NCBI GenBank assembly: GCA_013519935.1
Contig: JACDUA010000001.1
Coordinates: forward strand, 91,982 to 123,981
DNA from: Ectothiorhodospiraceae bacterium WFHF3C12
GTDB lineage: Bacteria > Pseudomonadota > Gammaproteobacteria > Nitrococcales > Nitrococcaceae
Length of the DNA stretch: 32,000 nt
Direction: 5' to 3'
Made by a program: the position numbers and the translations under genes. Below the pieces are notes generated by a model. It ran no database searches. It saw only the letters and a program-made list of their open reading frames with translations, and was not told the DNA's origin. Shown in pieces: positions 21,076 to 32,000 of this stretch. Each line of letters starts with the position of its first letter. Position 1 is the first letter of the stretch.

Positions 21076-23764
<2,689 letters not shown>

Positions 23765-23768
<4 letters not shown>

Positions 23769-24412
23769 CCCCCGCCCAGGCCCTCGCGGCCGACAACATC
23801 CACGCCCTCGGGGGGCTCGAAGCGAAAAAGGCCACTCTCCAGCGAGGGGTTCATGTCCAGCTCGCCCAGCTCGAGCACGGTGGTCTGGCCCAGGCTGTCC
23901 TGCAGCTCGAGCCGGTCCGGCGCACCTCCGGCCATATGGATGCGTACGGCATCGAACTGCCAGCTGCCGCCACGCCCCTGGAGCTCGACCCAGCCGGCTT
24001 CGTCGCCGCTCACGATGCGGAAATCGCGTTCCAGCTCCGCGAAGCTTCCGCTCAGCAGAAGGGCGGGGCCGGCACCCAGCATCTCGTCCATGGGCCGGAC
24101 GCTTACCTGCTCCAGCCCAACATCGTAGACCCAAAGGTCCTCGCCGTCGGCCACGATGATCTGCTGGTACGGCGACTCGTAGGTCCAGCGGAAACGGTCC
24201 GGACGCTGGATGGCCATGGTGCCGCTCGCCGATTCCAGCACCGCCCCTTCTTCATCCAGGGTCCGCTGCGTGAACGTCCCCCGCATGGCGTCCACGTCGA
24301 CGAAGAAGGCGCGGAACGCGGCCACGGCGCCGTCCGCGGGCTCGGCCGGGGCCGGGTTCGCCATGACGATCAGCAGGAGCAGGCCCGCCAGCATTGACGG
24401 CAACGGCTTCAT
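23765..24412 (-). CDS. lolA: Outer-membrane lipoprotein carrier protein LolA
   Basis: The ATG at 24412 (GGAG 6 nt upstream) gives the signal peptide MKPLPSMLAGLLLLIVMANPAPA. The LolA body follows (FTQRTLDEEG, PDRFRWTYESPYQQIIVADG). The stop overlaps the rarA start (ATGA). The order ftsK-lolA-rarA is conserved. Confidence 0.9.
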
Positions 24413-24425
24413 AACGGACTCCATG

Positions 24426-26750
24426 TCAGTCCTTGGGCGGCGGCGCGATGACTTCCCGGCCGCCGTTGGATTGGAGCGGCCCGACGATGCCGGCCGACTC
24501 CATCTCCTCGACCAGGCGGGCAGCACGGTTGTAGCCAATCTTCAGGCGACGTTGAACCCCGGAAATGGAGGCCTTGCGGGTTTCGGTCACGACGCGCACG
24601 GCCTGATCGTAAAGGGGATCGCTCTCCCCGTCCGCGCCGTCACCCTCGGTACCCAGCCCCGGGATGGCCGCGGAATCGCTACCCGGCTCCTGCAGCACCT
24701 CCTCGACGTAGTCCGGCTGCCCCGTCCCCTTGAGGTGCTCCGCCACGCGGTGCACCTCGGCGTCCGAGACGAACGCGCCGTGCACGCGTTCAGGCATCCC
24801 GCGGCTGCTCGGGCCCAGGTACAGCATATCGCCGTGGCCGAGCAGCGACTCGGCGCCCATCTGGTCGAGGATCGTGCGCGAGTCCACCTTCGAGGAGACC
24901 TGAAAGGCCATGCGCGTGGGAATGTTCGCCTTGATCAGGCCGGTGATGACGTCGACGGACGGCCGCTGGGTCGCCAGGATCAGGTGAATGCCCGAGGCGC
25001 GGGCCTTCTGGGCCAGCCGGGCGATAAGCTCCTCGACCTTCTTGCCCACCATCATCATCATGTCGGCGAACTCGTCCACCACCACGACGATGTACGGCAT
25101 CGGCTCCAGCTCCGGGGCGCTGGGCGCCTCGTCGATGAACGGCTCTTCCGGCGGCTTCCAGAGGGGATCCTTCAGGGGCTCGCCCCGGTTGCGCGCCTCC
25201 TCGATCTTGCGGTTGCAGCCCGAGATATTGCGCACCCCCAGCGCCGCCATCAGCCGGTAGCGGCGCTCCATCTCCGCCACGCACCAGCGCAGCGCATTGG
25301 CCGCCTCTTTCATGTCGGTGACCACGGGTGCCAACAGATGCGGGATATCGTCGTAGACCGAAAGCTCCAGCATCTTCGGGTCGATCATGATGAGCCGCAC
25401 GTCCGCCGGCTGATTCTTGTAGAGCATGCTCAGGATCATGGCGTTGACGCCCACCGACTTGCCCGAGCCGGTCGTGCCGGCCACGAGCAGATGCGGCATG
25501 CGCGCCAGATCCACCACCACGGGGTCGCCGCCGATGTCCTTGCCGATGGCCAGGCTCAACGGCGCGTTGGCCTTCTCGTACTGGCTGGAGCGGATGATCT
25601 CCGAGAAGGCGATGAGCTGCCGCCGTTCGTTGGGGATCTCCAGCCCCACCACCGACTTGCCGGGAATGACCTCCACGACGCGGACGCTGGTCACCGACAG
25701 CGCACGCGCCAGGTCCTTGGCCAGGTTGCTGATCTGGCTGACCTTCACCCCCGCCGCCGGCTGCAGCTCGAAGCGGGTGATGACCGGCCCGGGCTGCACC
25801 GCCACCACCTCCACCTCGACACCGAAGTCCCGCAGCTTCAGCTCCACCTGCCGGGACATGGCCTCCAGTGCCTCCTTGGAGTAGCCGCCCTGCTGCTCCG
25901 GCGGGCTGTCGAGCAACGTCACCGGCGGCGCCACGCCTGGCGCCGGATCCGTGAACAGGGGAATCTGCTCTTCCCTGGGCTTCTTCGGCTTCTCCTTCTC
26001 CGGGGGCGGTGCCTGGATTTGCGGCGGCTTCCGACCCTCGTTGCGGGTTTTCTCCCGGGCGCGTGCCTCGCTGCGCTCGCGCCGGGCACGCCGGCCCGCC
26101 CAGTAGTCCCGGAACTCGCCGGCCTTGCGCCCGCCATAGGCCACCAGGGCCAGCACGCCTCGCCCGGTCCAGTCCATGAGCTTGAGCCAGGACAGGCCCG
26201 TGAACAGCGTGATGCCGGCCAGGAACACCGCCAGGGACAACAGCGTCGCCCCCAGGAAATTGAAGGCCGCCCCCAGCGCCCCGGCGAGCACGGTGCCGAG
26301 CACGCCTCCGGAGGTGGCCGAAAGCGGGATGGTGCCCGGCACCGGCTCCACGTGGAGCGTCGCCAGGGTGCAACCGGCGATCACGGTGGCCACGAATCCC
26401 GCGAAACGCACCCCGAACACGGTCCAGTTGAATGCCTCCGCGCGCCGGTGCCAGCGATACGCCAGGAGCGCCAGCAGCACGATAAGAACCGGGAACAGAT
26501 AGGCCAGATACCCGAACAGGTAGAGTGCGATGTCGGCGAAATACGCCCCCGCCACACCGCCGACGTTGCGGATGAAATCGGCATTGGTGCTATAGCTCCA
26601 GCCGGGATCGGACTGGTCGTAGGTCACCAGCGCCAACAGCAGGAACGCCGCCACGGCGAGCAATACCCATAGCGCCGCCTCGCGAATCAGGCGCCCGGCC
26701 TGATTCACCAGCGGCGGGGATGCGGATGCAGTGTTATCGCTATTCGCCAC
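24426..26750 (-). CDS. ftsK: DNA translocase FtsK
   Basis: The 774-aa ORF has N-terminal TM segments and a Pro/Glu/Lys-rich linker. The motor domain has Walker A ([13 protein letters not shown]) and [13 protein letters not shown]. The C-terminal winged-helix gamma domain has [23 protein letters not shown]. It starts at a GTG. Confidence 0.95.
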
Positions 26751-26801
26751 GAGCCCGGGGATACACCTTACAAGCAGAGACAGGAGTTGCGCGTAACTTC
26801 T

Positions 26802-26819
26802 TTAATGAACGCACATTAA
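26802..26819. promoter_or_regulatory. Perfect palindrome TTAATG-N6-CATTAA upstream of ftsK (candidate operator)
   Basis: TTAATGAACGCACATTAA lies in the only AT-rich patch of the 410-bp divergent ftsK/DUF482 intergenic region. It begins about 50 bp upstream of the ftsK start. Confidence 0.3.
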
Positions 26820-27031
26820 TCGGGTATTCCATTACCATCAAGACCTCGCCGTCCCGGCGCCGTGCCGGGCCATTCGCCGCCTCCCTGAAGACAGGCCGGG
26901 CACCCGTCGGTTCCATACCCCCAAGTGAGCCCCCCATTTACCCGGCGGGGATGCGGGCATTAGGATTGAGCGCTCGCCGGGTACCGGCGCCATCCCGGCT
27001 TTCCGCGGCCCGCTCCGGAACGGCGGACCGC

Positions 27032-27149
27032 CCGGGAACGTCGGCCCGCAGTATACATGAGCCCGGCCTTGTCAGCCGTTCGCCAGGCCGCCGGGAACAC
27101 CGCTCGGCCCATATCGCTCTATTACTGCAGACGAAAGCAGCCCGGGAAC
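27032..27149 (+). repeat. Three direct copies of CCGGGAAC upstream of the DUF482 gene
   Basis: CCGGGAAC occurs at 27032-27039, 27091-27098 and 27142-27149, at spacings of 59 and 51 bp. The last copy is 13 nt before the predicted start codon. Confidence 0.3.
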
Positions 27150-27161
27150 CCCCTGTCCAAG

Positions 27162-28304
27162 ATGCACCTTCGCATTCACCATGCCATGTCGGAGATCCCC
27201 GCCGCGCGCTGGGATTCGCTCAACCGGGCCGACTACCCGTTTCACAGTCACGCCTTTCTCTCGGCACTGGAAAGCCACGGCGGCGTCGAACCGGACAACG
27301 GCTGGGCGCCCCACCACATGGCCCTCTACGACGACGCCGGTGCGCTCCTCGCCGGCGCGCCGGCGTATCTGAAGGGCCATTCCTGGGGTGAGTTCGTATT
27401 CGATTTCGCCTGGGCGGACGCCTATGAGCGGCATGGTCACGCGTACTACCCGAAAATGATCGGTGCCGTGCCTTTCAGCCCGGTAACCGGGCCTCGCGTG
27501 CTGCATGCCGACTCCCTGGACAGCGCAAGCGCGACACGCCAGCTCGGCCGTATCGCCCGGGAGATCGCCACCGACAACGCACTGAGCTCGATGCACTGGC
27601 TGTTCCCCCGGGAACCCCAGGCGGAGCACCTGCTGGCGGAGGACTATCTGCACCGCCTCGGCCTCCAGTATCACTGGCACAATCCCGGGTACGAGGGCTT
27701 CGAGGACTTCCTGGGCGCGCTGACTTCCAAGAAGCGCAAGAACATACGCCGCGAGCGCCGCCTGGTCCGCGACAGTGGCCTGAGCCTGGAGGTGCGGCAC
27801 GGGGATGAGGTATCCACCGAGGACTGGCACCGTTTCCATGCCTTCTACGAGGACACCTTCGCGCGACGGGGCAACATCCCGTTCCTCACGGCCGGGTTTT
27901 TCACTCGCGTGGGGCGGGCCCTGGGCTGGCGGGTGGTGCTGATTATCGCCCGCGAGCACGGTGAAATGGTCGCGGCGGCGCTGTGCTTTCGCGACCATGA
28001 CACCCTTTATGGCCGATACTGGGGCAGCCTGGGCTACGAGGACAGCCTGCATTTCGAGACCTGCTACTACCAGGGCATCGAGTACTGTATCGCTCACGGG
28101 CTGAAGCGCTTCGAGCCCGGTGCCCAGGGCGAGCACAAGATCCCGCGCGGCTTCCTCCCCGTCATCACCCATTCCTGCCACTGGATCACCGACGGGGGCT
28201 TTCGTGCCGCCATCGACGATTTTCTCGCCCGGGAACGCCCCGCCGTCGAACAGCGCGCAGCCCTGCTCGCCCGACACAGCCCCTACCGGAAGCCCGCGGA
28301 ATGA
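27162..28304 (+). CDS. DUF482 / FemAB-like GNAT-fold protein (PF04339)
   Basis: The ATG at 27162 gives MHLRIHHAMSEIPAARWDSLN...PFHSHAFLSALESHG. The C-terminal FEPGAQGEHKIPRGFLPVITHSCHWI matches the DUF482 signature as I recall it. The stop overlaps the aat start (ATGA). An alternative start is the ATG 8 codons downstream. Confidence 0.8.
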   Translation: MHLRIHHAMSEIPAARWDSLNRADYPFHSHAFLSALESHGGVEPDNGWAPHHMALYDDAGALLAGAPAYLKGHSWGEFVFDFAWADAYERHGHAYYPKMIGAVPFSPVTGPRVLHADSLDSASATRQLGRIAREIATDNALSSMHWLFPREPQAEHLLAEDYLHRLGLQYHWHNPGYEGFEDFLGALTSKKRKNIRRERRLVRDSGLSLEVRHGDEVSTEDWHRFHAFYEDTFARRGNIPFLTAGFFTRVGRALGWRVVLIIAREHGEMVAAALCFRDHDTLYGRYWGSLGYEDSLHFETCYYQGIEYCIAHGLKRFEPGAQGEHKIPRGFLPVITHSCHWITDGGFRAAIDDFLARERPAVEQRAALLARHSPYRKPAE

Positions 28305-29032
28305 TCCCCGTTCTGGCCATGGCCCCCGACGACGAGGACACGCCCTTTCCGCCGCCGGAGCGAGCACTCGATTACCCCAACGGGCTCATCGCCGTCGGCG
28401 GCGCCTTGAGCGTGCGCCGCCTGCGAATGGCGTACGAGTCCGGCATCTTCCCGTGGTTCTCCCCCGGTCAGCCGCCCCTTTGGTGGACGCCGGATCCGCG
28501 CGCCGTCCTGTTTCCCGGCCAAATGCACATCCCGCGAAGCCTGCGAAAGGTCCTGCGCCGGCAAGCTTACCGGGTTACGCTGGACGCGGCATTCCCGCGC
28601 GTCATTGCCGAGTGCGCCGACCTGCGTGCCGACGCGGAGGGGACGTGGATCACGGAGGAAATGCGCGCGGCTTACATCACGCTGCACGAGCACGGCCTCG
28701 CCCACTCGGTAGAGGTCTGGATGGACGGGTCGCTGGCCGGGGGGCTCTACGGCGTGGCGCTTGGCAAGGCCTTTTTCGGGGAATCCATGTTCAGCCGCCG
28801 AACGGACGCCTCGAAGATTGCGCTTGCCTGGCTATCCGCCCAGCTTCTAAGGTGGGATTATGAGCTGATCGATTGCCAGCTCCCCTCGCCGCACCTGGAG
28901 CGTCTGGGTGCAAGGGAGATTCCCCGCGAGGCGTTCCTTTCCCGGCTCGCGCAGGCACTCACCGCCGCGACCGGGGAGACGGCCTGGACAATCGATCCGG
29001 AGCTGACAGGCGCCCTGGTTGCCGGAGGCTGA
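28301..29032 (+). CDS. aat: Leucyl/phenylalanyl-tRNA--protein transferase
   Basis: The 243-aa ORF is collinear with E. coli Aat (PNGLIAVGG, MAYESGIFPWFSPGQPPLWWTPDPRAVLFP, YRVTLDAAFPRVIAECA, GESMFS). Confidence 0.92.
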   Translation: MIPVLAMAPDDEDTPFPPPERALDYPNGLIAVGGALSVRRLRMAYESGIFPWFSPGQPPLWWTPDPRAVLFPGQMHIPRSLRKVLRRQAYRVTLDAAFPRVIAECADLRADAEGTWITEEMRAAYITLHEHGLAHSVEVWMDGSLAGGLYGVALGKAFFGESMFSRRTDASKIALAWLSAQLLRWDYELIDCQLPSPHLERLGAREIPREAFLSRLAQALTAATGETAWTIDPELTGALVAGG

Positions 29033-29035
29033 GTG

Positions 29036-29827
29036 ATGAAAGAGCAGGAGCTGAACCGCTCGCCACGCGCCTCGGCGCGAAGCCATCGCCTGGCACTTTA
29101 CGCCACCGGCACCCACGACTGCCCCTACCTGCCGGATCGCCTGGCACGTACCGCCTTCGTGGACCCCGATGCGGACATGAGCGGGGAAATCTACGGCAAC
29201 CTGCTGCAGCAGGGCTTTCGCCGGAGCGGACCCTACGTCTACCGCCCCGCCTGCCCCGGCTGCAGCGCCTGCCAGTCGCTGCGGGTGCCGGTGACGCGTT
29301 TCCGCCCGAGCCGCAGTCAACGCCGCTGCCTGCGCCGTAACCGGGACCTGCGCGTCACCCCGCATCCGCCCGAGTTCAGCGAGGCCCATTTCGACCTCTA
29401 CCGGCGCTACATCGCGTACCGGCATGCCGGCGGGAGCATGGACAATCCGACGCGGGACAGCTACCTGCAGTTCCTCACCGCACCGTGGCTGGACACCACC
29501 TTCTATACCTTCCACGCGGAGGACAGACTGGTGGCCGTGGCGGTCAGCGACCGCCTGGCCGACAGCCTGTCCGCCGTCTACACCTTTTTCGAGCCCTCCG
29601 AGGCGCGCCGTGGGCTCGGCACGTACGCGATCCTCTGGCAGATCGAGGAGGCCCGACGCCTCGGCCTTCCCTACCTCCACATGGGATACTGGGTGGCCGG
29701 AAGCGACAAGATGGCCTACAAGGCGGACTTCCGCCCCCACGAGATTCGGGTGGGCAATCACTGGCTGCTGGTCGGGGAGCAGCAGGACGGTGAGGACGCC
29801 ACCAATCAGCGCACCTCGCGGTTCTAG
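29036..29827 (+). CDS. bpt: Arginyl-tRNA--protein transferase family protein (bacterial Bpt, Asp/Glu leucyltransferase)
   Basis: Shows ATE-family features: the N-terminal CPYLPDR, then GFRRSG, the Cys pair CPGCSACQSLRV, and C-terminal YLHMGYWV. The ATG at 29036 is 3 nt after the aat stop. The track starts at the GTG at 29033. Confidence 0.9.
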   Translation: MKEQELNRSPRASARSHRLALYATGTHDCPYLPDRLARTAFVDPDADMSGEIYGNLLQQGFRRSGPYVYRPACPGCSACQSLRVPVTRFRPSRSQRRCLRRNRDLRVTPHPPEFSEAHFDLYRRYIAYRHAGGSMDNPTRDSYLQFLTAPWLDTTFYTFHAEDRLVAVAVSDRLADSLSAVYTFFEPSEARRGLGTYAILWQIEEARRLGLPYLHMGYWVAGSDKMAYKADFRPHEIRVGNHWLLVGEQQDGEDATNQRTSRF

Positions 29828-29847
29828 CGACGGGTTGAGCAACTCCC

Positions 29848-29880
29848 GCGCCGCATTGCATTGCGGTGGCGCCGCGTTTT
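29848..29880 (+). terminator. Candidate intrinsic terminator after bpt
   Basis: Two alternative hairpins share a GCGG arm. One is CCGC-ATTGCATT-GCGG (29851-29866). The other is GCGG-TGGCG-CCGC (29863-29875), followed by GTTTT (29876-29880). Confidence 0.4.
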
Positions 29881-29997
29881 GCTAGAATTCCCCGTCTGTT
29901 GGGGTACCCGCCGGTTGTTTCAGGTCACCCGCATCGCAATATCCGGGCGTTGTGAACCGCACCGGTTCCCCGACGTTTTCAACGAGAGAGAGGCTGA

Positions 29998-30216
29998 ATG
30001 TCGAAAGAAGACAACATTAGAATGCAGGGCACCATCGTGGATACGCTGCCGAACACGATGTTCCGGGTGGAGCTGGAGAACGGCCATGTCGTTACGGCCC
30101 ACATCTCCGGCAAGATGCGAAAGCATTACATCCGCATTCTTCGCGGTGACAAGGTTACCGTGGAGCTCACGCCCTACGACCTGACCAAGGGGCGTATCGT
30201 CTATCGCGCCCGCTAG
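29998..30216 (+). CDS. infA: Translation initiation factor IF-1
   Basis: The 72-aa ORF ([72 protein letters not shown]) is nearly identical in pattern to E. coli IF-1. Confidence 0.97.
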
Positions 30217-30297
30217 GGCCCACGCACGCCAGGCCCGATTCCGCCCACTATACCGCCGGGCCTACCGGCCGCCGGCCAGGCGGCACCGGCCAGGACC

Positions 30298-30328
30298 GCT
30301 CCGCCGCGACCGGCCGTCGCAGCGGAGC
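30298..30328. terminator. Hairpin between convergent infA and clpA
   Basis: GCTCCGC-C-GCGAC-CGGCC-GTCGC-A-GCGGAGC forms a 12-bp interrupted stem. It lies 9 nt from the clpA stop. There is no U-run. Confidence 0.4.
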
Positions 30329-30336
30329 CCGCGACG

Positions 30337-32000
30337 CTAGCTGACCACTTCCGCCTCTTCCACGCGGAAGACGATCTCGCCATCTTCCTCGTCGACGACC
30401 ACATGGCCGCCATGGGCCAGTTTGCCGAAGAGAATCTCGTCCGCCAGCGGCTTCTTGATGCGCTCCTGGATCACGCGGTCCATGGGTCGGGCACCCATGC
30501 GGCTGTCGTAACCCTCCTCGGCGATCCATGCCTGGGCGGCGTCGGTGACGTCCACCGTGACCTTGCGCTCGGCCAGTTGGTGCCGCAGCTCGCGGATGAA
30601 CTTCTCCACCACCTTCTGAATGACACCCTCGCTGAGGCTGTTGAACTGGATGATGGCATCCAGCCGGTTACGGAACTCCGGCGTGAACATCCGCTTGATG
30701 GTTTCCATGGCATCCAGGGAATGATCCTGCTGGGTGAAGCCGATGGAGCGCCGGGCCTGTTCCTGGGCACCGGCATTGGTGGTCATGACCAGGATCACGT
30801 TGCGGAAATCCGCCTCGCGGCCATTGTTGTCCGTCAGCGTACCGTGGTCCATGACCTGCAGCAGCAGGTTGAACACGTCCGGATGCGCCTTCTCGATCTC
30901 GTCGAGCAACAGGACCGAGTGCGGGTGCTTGATCACCTCCTCGGTAAGCAGACCGCCCTGGTCGAAGCCCACGTAACCGGGCGGCGCGCCGATCAGCCGC
31001 GAGACGGTGTGGCGTTCCATGTACTCCGACATGTCGAAACGCAGCAGCGGGATGCCCATGACGTGCGACAGCTGCCGGGTCACCTCGGTCTTGCCGACAC
31101 CGGTCGGGCCGGCGAACAGGAAATTGCCCACGGGCTTGTCGCCCGAGCGCAGCCCTGCCCGCGACATCTTGATGGTCGCCGCGAGCGTGTCGATGGCCTC
31201 GTCCTGACCGTAGATGGTGAACTTGAGATCCCGCTCCAGGTTCTCCAGCAGCCGCATGTCGGAGTTGGATACCCGCTTCGGCGGAATCCGGGCCATCTTG
31301 GCGATGATCGATTCGATGTCCGACACGCTCACGCTCTTGCGCCGCTTCGAAGGCGGCAACAGGCGCAGGTTCGCCCCGGCCTCGTCGATGACGTCGATGG
31401 CCTTGTCCGGCAGGCGCCGGTCCGTCAGGTGCTTGGCGGCAAGCTCGGCCGCCGCCTTCAGCGCCGGTCCCGTGTACTTGACGCCGTGATGGGCCTCGAA
31501 CCGCTCCTTGAGCCCTCGCAGGATCTGCACCGTCTCGTCAACGGTCGGCTCGCTGACGTCGATCTTCTGGAATCGACGGGCCAGCGCCCGGTCCTTCTCG
31601 AAGATGCCCCGGTATTCCTGGTAGGTCGTCGAGCCGATGCACTTGAGCTCACCGGAGGCCAGCATCGGCTTGAGCAGGTTGGAGGCATCCATGACGCCGC
31701 CCGACGCCGATCCCGCGCCGATGACCGTGTGGATCTCGTCGATGAACAGGATGGCGTCCTTCTGCTTCTTCAGCTGCTGCAGCAGGCCCTTGAGGCGCTT
31801 CTCGAAGTCGCCGCGGTATTTGGTACCGGCAACCAGCGCACCGAGATCCAGCGCATAGATCCGCGCGTCGGTGAGCACGTCCGGCACGTCGCCATCCACG
31901 ACCAGCTTCGCGAGACCCTCGGCGATGGCGGTCTTGCCCACGCCGGCCTCGCCGACGAACAACGGATTGTTCTTGCGCCGGCGGCAGAGCACCTGAATGG
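30337..32000 (-). CDS. clpA: ATP-dependent Clp protease ATP-binding subunit ClpA (C-terminal part; 5' end beyond the window)
   Basis: Two AAA+ modules are visible: [20 protein letters not shown] with ILFIDEIHT, and [19 protein letters not shown] with [16 protein letters not shown]. The ClpA-type C-terminus is also present. The reading frame stays open to position 32000. Confidence 0.95.

Follow-up and report, generated by a model that had tools for sequence, protein, structure and literature searches.

Organization of the DUF482-aat-bpt locus

The window analysed here is a stretch of 32,000 nucleotides (nt) from Ectothiorhodospiraceae bacterium WFHF3C12 (contig JACDUA010000001.1, positions 91,982 to 123,981), and it contains a gene of the DUF482 family that stands next to two genes for aminoacyl-tRNA--protein transferases. 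Three co-oriented genes on the plus strand fill positions 27162-29827: a PF04339 gene (DUF482/FemAB_like), aat and bpt. The first gene (27162..28304, plus strand) encodes a 380-residue protein that matches PF04339 with an E value of 1.5e-144 and also matches PF13480; its PF04339 score is 482.2 bits against a cut-off of 27, and the match covers profile positions 2-369 of 369. It is the single DUF482 copy in the WFHF3C12 genome. An alternative, longer open reading frame (ORF) begins at 27057. Because DUF482 homologues are 377-388 residues long and cover 97-100% of the 380-residue query, the start was placed at 27162 and not at 27057. The second gene, aat (28301..29032, plus strand), encodes a leucyl/phenylalanyl-tRNA--protein transferase (PF03588 Leu_Phe_trans, E 2e-74) that clears the TIGR00667 equivalog cut-off with 217.8 versus 143.55 bits. 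The third gene, bpt (29036..29827, plus strand), encodes an ATE-family aminoacyl-tRNA--protein transferase with matches to ATE_N (E 1.5e-25), ATE_C (E 8.7e-41) and PF13480 (E 1.2e-05), and clears the NF002341 equivalog cut-off with 323.5 versus 252 bits. The NCBIfam equivalog models name this protein (29036-29827) 'arginyltransferase'. Since bacterial Bpt is a leucyl-transferase acting on N-terminal Asp/Glu (PMC9351520), the automatic annotation likely mislabels the amino acid that Bpt transfers.

The junctions between the three genes are tight. Read from the sequence, the DUF482-aat junction (28288..28304, plus strand) contains a Shine-Dalgarno-like GGAAG at 28288-28292, 8 nt ahead of the aat ATG, and the DUF482 TGA overlaps that ATG within ATGA at 28301-28304. 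At the aat-bpt junction (29024..29038, plus strand) a GGAGG at 29024-29028 lies within the 3' end of aat, 7 nt ahead of the bpt ATG at 29036. The aat TGA occupies 29030-29032 and an alternative bpt start is the GTG at 29033, so that bpt begins 0-3 nt past the aat stop. Neither junction matches an Rfam family, and a consensus scan found no terminator-like hairpin on the plus strand between DUF482, aat and bpt. From this arrangement we infer a single transcript for all three genes and translational coupling between them.

Downstream lie infA (29998..30216, plus strand; initiation factor IF-1, PF01176, E 7.7e-29) and, on the minus strand, the 3' two-thirds of clpA (30337..32000; Pfam AAA_2, ClpB_D2-small, AAA and AAA_lid_9), which runs past the end of the window and encodes 769 residues in full in the genome. 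A 115-residue clpS follows clpA just beyond the window (contig 124688-125035, minus strand), as read from the genome. DUF482, aat and bpt thus form one compact, co-oriented unit beside infA and convergent to clpA-clpS. A preliminary description, made from the sequence, had proposed three consecutive genes, the overlap of the DUF482 stop with the aat start, a bpt start 3 nt after the aat stop, and infA and clpA as neighbours. The ORFs and the Pfam and equivalog matches agree with all of these, with the alternative GTG placing the bpt start 0 nt from the aat stop and with clpS as an additional neighbour outside the window. The operon itself is ordinary in form, and its interest lies in the first gene.

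Predicted fold and conserved residues of the DUF482 protein

Sequence searches place the DUF482 protein apart from the families of its two partners. It shows no match to PF03588/TIGR00667 or to ATE_N/ATE_C, no PF02388 match, and no phmmer or hmmsearch match to the FemX and FemA chains of the PDB. A single-sequence search of the PDB matched no chain, and a profile built from 67 sequences gave a sole, marginal match, to Sba18 (E 0.26, residues 222-317). The DUF482 protein and Bpt both match PF13480, and no other sequence relationship to Aat or Bpt was detectable.

The AlphaFold2 model of the protein, built on the 67-sequence alignment, is a two-lobed alpha/beta fold with a predicted local distance difference test score (pLDDT) of 94.3 and a predicted template modelling score (pTM) of 0.92. 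When the model was compared with the PDB by Foldseek, ranks 1-17 were all aminoacyl-tRNA-dependent tandem GNAT proteins, with TM-scores of 0.45-0.55 normalised by the query. The top match was FemX of Weissella viridescens (E 1e-13, TM 0.55 query-normalised and 0.61 target-normalised), followed by the Sba18/Sbb17 peptide synthases, FemA and FemX of Staphylococcus aureus, and the aminoacyl-phosphatidylglycerol (aa-PG) synthase domains of MprF. The preliminary description had suggested comparing a model with aminoacyl-tRNA-dependent transferases of this kind, and it is such enzymes that emerged as the best structural matches.

Over 241 alpha- and gammaproteobacterial DUF482 sequences, 62 positions are at least 97% conserved, among them R192, K193, R199, H325 and K326. 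The first three belong to the basic stretch SKKRKNIRRERR at residues 189-200, which lies on a predicted helix (189-204) marking the beginning of both the second lobe and the PF13480 match. H325-K326, which is invariant, ends the motif GAQGEHK at 320-326. Two hallmarks are described in an article on the structure of Ate1 (PMC9351520): a helix of positive charge that contacts the phosphates of the tRNA, present in FemX, Aat, Ate1 and the aa-PG synthases, and an essential Lys, present in FemX (K305), Ate1 (K304) and the aa-PG synthases. In FemX (F304) and Ate1 (Y303) the residue before this Lys is aromatic. The basic helix and H325-K326 of DUF482 are possible counterparts of these features. H325-K326 was aligned by eye and through the PF13480 match, in which it stands 3 residues off Y229-K230 of Bpt.

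The same fold invites a different reading, in which DUF482 is an N-acyltransferase that depends on coenzyme A (CoA) or acyl carrier protein and which, if it acts in the N-degron pathway at all, might acylate N-termini and so block degrons. Source annotations such as 'GNAT family N-acetyltransferase' and 'predicted N-acyltransferase' speak for it, as do the GNAT fold with its PF13480 match and the presence of CoA-dependent tandem GNAT proteins lower in the Foldseek list, namely VipF, Eis2 and others at TM 0.32-0.40 and a clavulanic-acid tandem GNAT at TM 0.45-0.48. A plant homologue, cotton GhACNAT, is likewise catalogued as an acyl-CoA N-acyltransferase; its silencing leads to male sterility, and the label appears in the accessible text of that article as an annotation unaccompanied by an enzyme assay (PMC4488762). 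These names, however, stem from annotation pipelines and database entries that, as far as the accessible entries and text go, report no assay, and all 17 of the best 17 structural matches use aminoacyl-tRNA. The conserved basic helix and the H-K motif would fit the tRNA-dependent subgroup, and the sole PDB profile match, weak as it is, was to the aminoacyl-tRNA-dependent enzyme Sba18. We therefore consider an acyl-CoA-type activity improbable.

Linkage and co-occurrence across genomes

To place the locus in a wider frame, PF04339 was searched in 400 genomes of Gammaproteobacteria, where it was found above cut-off in 218. About 17 kb was taken around each of the 100 best-scoring matches, one per genome, and neighbours were found by tblastn with the window-derived Aat, Bpt, InfA, ClpA, ClpS, FtsK, RarA and SerS. 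In 73 of the 100 loci Aat follows DUF482 on the same strand at a distance of up to 4 kb, and in 58 at up to 250 nt; it is the most persistent neighbour of DUF482 in this class (73% of loci). Bpt was found in 51, InfA in 48, ClpA in 37 and FtsK in 59 of these loci. The aat start codon overlaps the DUF482 stop by 4 nt, in frame, in at least 13 other genomes, and in 27 gammaproteobacterial loci the two genes are adjacent with no clpA in the surrounding 6.5 kb. An independent sample of 80 loci from named GTDB species has aat directly downstream of DUF482 in 35 cases and no more than 4 kb downstream in 37. Chance adjacency would be expected about once in a few thousand genes, which argues that the DUF482-aat pairing is real, though the genomes are kin.

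The pairing takes another form in Alphaproteobacteria, where PF04339 occurs in 148 of 251 genomes and 60 loci of about 20 kb were taken. Here aat is downstream of DUF482 in none of the 60 loci and 2.4-8.3 kb upstream in 9. Downstream there is clpA instead, in 41 of the 60 loci; it is convergent with DUF482 in 39 and no more than 700 nt away in 18, and 40 of the 41 have clpS behind it. In the 60 loci aat, infA, trxB and ftsK are not carried along with DUF482-clpA. The preliminary description had singled out linkage of DUF482 to aat, bpt, clpS and clpA for checking across genomes; such linkage was found in both classes, chiefly to aat in Gammaproteobacteria and to clpA-clpS in Alphaproteobacteria.

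Presence and absence were also compared in the 400 gammaproteobacterial genomes. Both DUF482 and aat were found in 203, DUF482 without aat in 8, aat without DUF482 in 73 and neither in 116, which corresponds to an odds ratio of about 40. Of the first 30 families in the taxonomic listing, the 15 with DUF482 all have aat, as do 7 of the 15 without DUF482. ClpS was present in all five that were checked of the eight genomes with DUF482 and without aat. Genome reduction confounds this co-occurrence, because most of the listed aat-less genomes are small (mostly below 2.5 Mb). Detectable in 276 of the 400 genomes, aat is less frequent than expected, given that it is commonly regarded as nearly universal among Proteobacteria.

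A FastTree phylogeny of 241 DUF482 sequences splits cleanly into an alphaproteobacterial and a gammaproteobacterial clade, and gene context follows the clades. Aat-linkage is the majority state across the gamma clade, with several unlinked groups nested within it, and Clp-linkage is seen all through the alpha clade, also in a deep branch made up of small genomes. The tree contains 29 context changes in total. The linkage is an ancient arrangement that has been retained and repeatedly lost, rather than one gained many times independently. The idea that the unlinked gammaproteobacterial copies form a single paralogous subfamily was rejected, as they are spread over several clades that lie within aat-linked ones, in keeping with linkage having been lost repeatedly.

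Surroundings of the operon

Upstream of DUF482 and divergent from it is ftsK (24426..26750, minus strand; Pfam FtsK_SpoIIIE, FtsK_4TM, FtsK_alpha and FtsK_gamma), part of a conserved serS-rarA-lolA-ftsK block. Within 22461-24538, the longest rarA ORF (TTG at 24134) is over-extended, its MgsA-type domains beginning at about residue 135. The lolA gene (about 23816-24322, minus strand) occupies the overlap with this ORF, so that the E. coli-like order serS-rarA-lolA-ftsK is intact here.

The divergent intergenic region, which includes the DUF482 leader, is 411 bp long (26751..27161) and holds no ORF with a Pfam match. Neither a credible Rfam match nor a match to the sigma-70 consensus was found in it. 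No trxB lies between ftsK and DUF482, a place that it occupies in many relatives, and the best trxB match is on another contig of the WFHF3C12 genome (C123, 25772-26710); the vacated 411-bp region (26751-27161) holds no recognisable feature of its own. An octamer, CCGGGAAC, occurs at 27032, 27091 and 27142, that is, in three copies within 118 bp of the leader. Four further plus-strand copies lie elsewhere in the window. In three relatives (L084, L041 and L108) the plus strand of the fetched locus, leader included, carries no copy.

Between bpt and infA, the consensus scan found a terminator-like hairpin followed by TTTTGCTAGA (29862..29876, plus strand), the sole plus-strand match of this kind in 26600-30400. 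Transcription of DUF482, aat and bpt may end at this hairpin. The evidence is weak because two sites were found on both strands versus 2.1 expected from shuffles.

Proposed function of DUF482

Based on the linkage and the predicted fold, we tentatively prefer the reading that DUF482 is a FemX-type, probably aminoacyl-tRNA-dependent transferase that is expressed together with aat and bpt and has a functional link to the ClpS/ClpAP N-degron pathway, a reading to which we give a chance only somewhat below even. On this reading the protein would be an active enzyme of the FemX or aa-PG synthase type, as its model suggests. The conserved basic helix SKKRKNIRRERR (189-200) would bind the acceptor end of an aminoacyl-tRNA, and the amino acid would be passed to the amine of an acceptor held in the cleft between the two GNAT lobes. 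By analogy, His325-Lys326 might take the role of Phe304-Lys305 in FemX and Tyr303-Lys304 in Ate1, stabilising the tetrahedral intermediate. Judged from the gene linkage, the acceptor would most likely be the N-terminus of a protein or peptide, and DUF482 could be a third enzyme, next to Aat and Bpt, that writes or edits the N-degrons read by ClpS. The preliminary description had suggested that DUF482 could be a third aminoacyl-tRNA-dependent transferase or an accessory factor feeding the N-degron pathway. The linkage and the FemX-like fold support this proposal in part, and the step from a linked, FemX-shaped protein to one that feeds the N-degron pathway is one that we infer.

A more specific version holds that DUF482 is a third aminoacyl-tRNA--protein transferase that would place ClpS-readable N-degrons on N-termini outside the ranges of Aat (Arg/Lys) and Bpt (Asp/Glu), and that the cyanobacterial relatives and the plant homologue At2g23390 would be candidate plastid N-degron transferases. 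We regard this version as doubtful. The Arabidopsis protein At2g23390 has been detected in the soluble chloroplast proteome (PMC3531887).

Bacterial N-degron biology recognises two writers, Aat and Bpt, and the physiological scope of the pathway is unclear. DUF482 makes a good candidate for a third such enzyme, and one open to test. Its pairing with the N-degron genes is widespread in related bacteria, it occurs in over half of the alpha- and gammaproteobacterial genomes sampled, and in the latter class it is almost never without aat. The laboratory strains Caulobacter crescentus and Synechococcus elongatus also carry the family. Resolving its activity either way would annotate a family of thousands of members together with a chloroplast homologue, and a negative outcome would still matter in that it would stop a tempting mis-annotation of DUF482.

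Synteny, adaptor function and the N-degron reading

A range of observations weighs against a role of DUF482 in the N-degron pathway, and they are gathered here. The first concerns the literature. For DUF482, PF04339, COG3146, FemAB-like and At2g23390 we found no functional characterisation or experimental data in the literature searched, in agreement with the preliminary description, which had given PF04339 as a family of no established function, and NCBIfam holds no model for it. The only published functional prediction, that COG3146/At2g23390 is a 'pterin-dependent enzyme' (Gerdes et al. 2011), was, according to the accessible part of that article, invalidated by the authors' own complementation test (PMC3223725). 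The second concerns the sequence. Comparison by hhalign with Aat and Bpt profiles built from the fetched loci gave no similarity, with a probability of about zero for Aat, so that homology of DUF482 to Aat or Bpt cannot be claimed from sequence. The spacing from H325-K326 to the following F-x-P also differs from that in Bpt.

The remaining points concern gene order, and they favour an explanation by synteny in which no function is shared. DUF482 would then be a housekeeping FemX-fold transferase, possibly aminoacyl-tRNA-dependent, that acts on a small molecule, a lipid head group or a cofactor and rides in an ancient block of genes. The region is indeed an old, slowly rearranging block. Its layout is serS-rarA-lolA-ftsK / trxB-X-aat-infA / clpA-clpS, where X is DUF482 or, in E. 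coli, cydDC. E. coli K-12 has the order clpS clpA / infA aat cydC cydD trxB / lrp ftsK lolA rarA serS, a contrast that the preliminary description had drawn correctly, and its cydDC thus fills the DUF482 slot of the same block; this strain has neither DUF482 nor bpt. Clustering of all neighbouring ORFs in the 100 sampled gammaproteobacterial loci and the window's own locus showed a thioredoxin reductase gene (trxB) as the next upstream gene, in the orientation of DUF482, in 57 of 101. The genes trxB, ftsK and infA share the block and have no known N-degron role. As they are kept nearly as often as aat, part of the linkage signal is block synteny. The tree, moreover, is one of vertical inheritance with secondary losses of linkage, which means that the many linked genomes reflect few independent events.

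Other contexts point in the same direction. In Alphaproteobacteria the relation to clpA is convergent and hence not that of an operon. The gene immediately upstream on the same strand encodes a RidA/YjgF-family protein (PF14588) in 50 of the 60 loci (L182-L241), and a gene for a glycerophosphodiester phosphodiesterase (GDPD) lies close upstream on the same strand in 16. RidA is a second conserved operon partner of DUF482, and it points away from N-degrons. A subgroup of Gammaproteobacteria has a third context, ubiC-ubiA-DUF482, with neither aat nor clpA nearby. Outside these classes, the family was found in only 2 of 151 genomes of Acidobacteriota, and one acidobacterial copy, taken with 7-kb flanks, showed no linkage. 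The closest structures also include enzymes that act on small molecules or lipids and not on proteins (Sba18/Sbb17, the aa-PG synthases and FemX), and the very high conservation of DUF482 would fit one fixed, universal substrate. Finally, three reduced genomes (G038, G219 and G351; 0.9-1.3 Mb, 96-97% complete) keep DUF482 and ClpS while aat was not detected in them. This argues that DUF482 is independent of Aat; the gene is evidently worth keeping in small genomes.

Against a purely syntenic explanation stand several features of the linkage that go beyond the conservation of the block: the persistence of aat in Gammaproteobacteria, the most frequent neighbour and one that stays adjacent in the 27 loci from which clpA has moved away; the retention of DUF482 beside clpA-clpS in Alphaproteobacteria, where trxB, infA and ftsK do not stay; and the co-occurrence with aat, which is missing in only 8 of 211 DUF482-positive gammaproteobacterial genomes. 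The recurrence of stop/start overlaps with aat speaks against it as well. We regard synteny without shared function as the main rival, with a chance below even and only a little lower than that of the preferred reading.

The ubiA-DUF482 arrangement was seen in nine loci (L119, L120, L132, L135, L155, L157, L161, L169 and L244) from Haliea/Halioglobus-like and other genomes, with ubiC ahead of ubiA-DUF482 in L244. In most of them DUF482 has a rubredoxin-reductase-type gene on its upstream side and is followed by YaaA-like and DUF938-like genes, these names being assigned by eye. The same Halieaceae-type context (rubredoxin-reductase-like, ubiA-like, DUF482, DUF938-like and YaaA-like genes) is found in L131, a record titled Cryomorphaceae bacterium MAG. 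Mis-binning of this contig may account for the apparent Bacteroidota copy.

The pattern of co-occurrence also bears on a non-catalytic role, in which DUF482 would be an accessory or adaptor protein that presents substrates or tRNA to Aat or Bpt, or hands substrates to ClpS. Tight translational coupling of the kind predicted here for aat is often seen with complexes of equal amounts, and the two genes co-occur. The 62 near-invariant positions, with the polar and charged ones clustered in motifs, nonetheless resemble an active site, and DUF482 persists in some genomes that lack aat and, in Alphaproteobacteria, at a distance from it. No fusion to Aat, Bpt or ClpS was seen either: apparent long frames of 470-900 residues were upstream read-through in GC-rich DNA, and others overlapped ubiA in another frame. 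An adaptor role is thus very improbable.

Comparison with known systems

The reading that we prefer, a FemX-type transferase tied to the N-degron route, can be set against five known systems. FemX of W. viridescens (PDB 1NE9, 4II9 and 7Z6A), one of the FemABX transferases that build peptidoglycan branches, is the best structural match. Like DUF482 it consists of two GNAT lobes, and it is of similar size (335 versus 380 residues). In both proteins the second lobe opens with a conserved basic helix and has a conserved Lys towards its C-terminal end, features that may correspond. The identity in the structural alignment is, however, 14-16%, and the root-mean-square deviation given by Foldseek is 5-6 Å. 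Gram-negative bacteria as a rule lack interpeptide bridges, which makes the acceptor of FemX an unlikely one for DUF482.

The two operon partners share parts of this picture. Whereas DUF482 has tandem lobes, Aat, with 243 residues here, has a single GNAT lobe. Its stretch RSLRKVLRR and SKKRKNIRRERR of DUF482 have in common a basic S/R-x-x-R-K-x-x-R-R pattern. The catalytic pair of Aat, which we take to be Asp/Gln (IDCQ here), is not a Lys. A GNAT-like fold that uses aminoacyl-tRNA has been published for Aat (PF03588) (PMC9351520). In Bpt, as in DUF482, the PF13480 match extends over the catalytic GNAT lobe. Its A-Y-K at 228-230 (numbered from the GTG at 29033) resembles E-H-K at 324-326 of DUF482 and matches Tyr303-Lys304 of Ate1. 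The N-terminal domain of Bpt, on the other hand, is the Cys-rich ATE_N, where DUF482 has a GNAT lobe instead.

Two further systems combine tandem GNAT lobes with the use of aminoacyl-tRNA. The aa-PG synthase domain of MprF (DUF2156; PDB 4V34-36, 6LV0 and 9J8S) aligns with a TM-score of 0.45-0.54 by DUF482 length, whereas the flippase domain of MprF is absent from the 380-residue DUF482 protein, which shows no such Pfam match. The Sba18/Sbb17 enzymes (PDB 9WQW-9WQY) align with a Foldseek E value of about 1e-11 and a TM-score of 0.51 query-normalised and 0.65 target-normalised. They belong to natural-product gene clusters and act on a small-molecule amine, whereas DUF482 is a vertically inherited gene of the housekeeping type.

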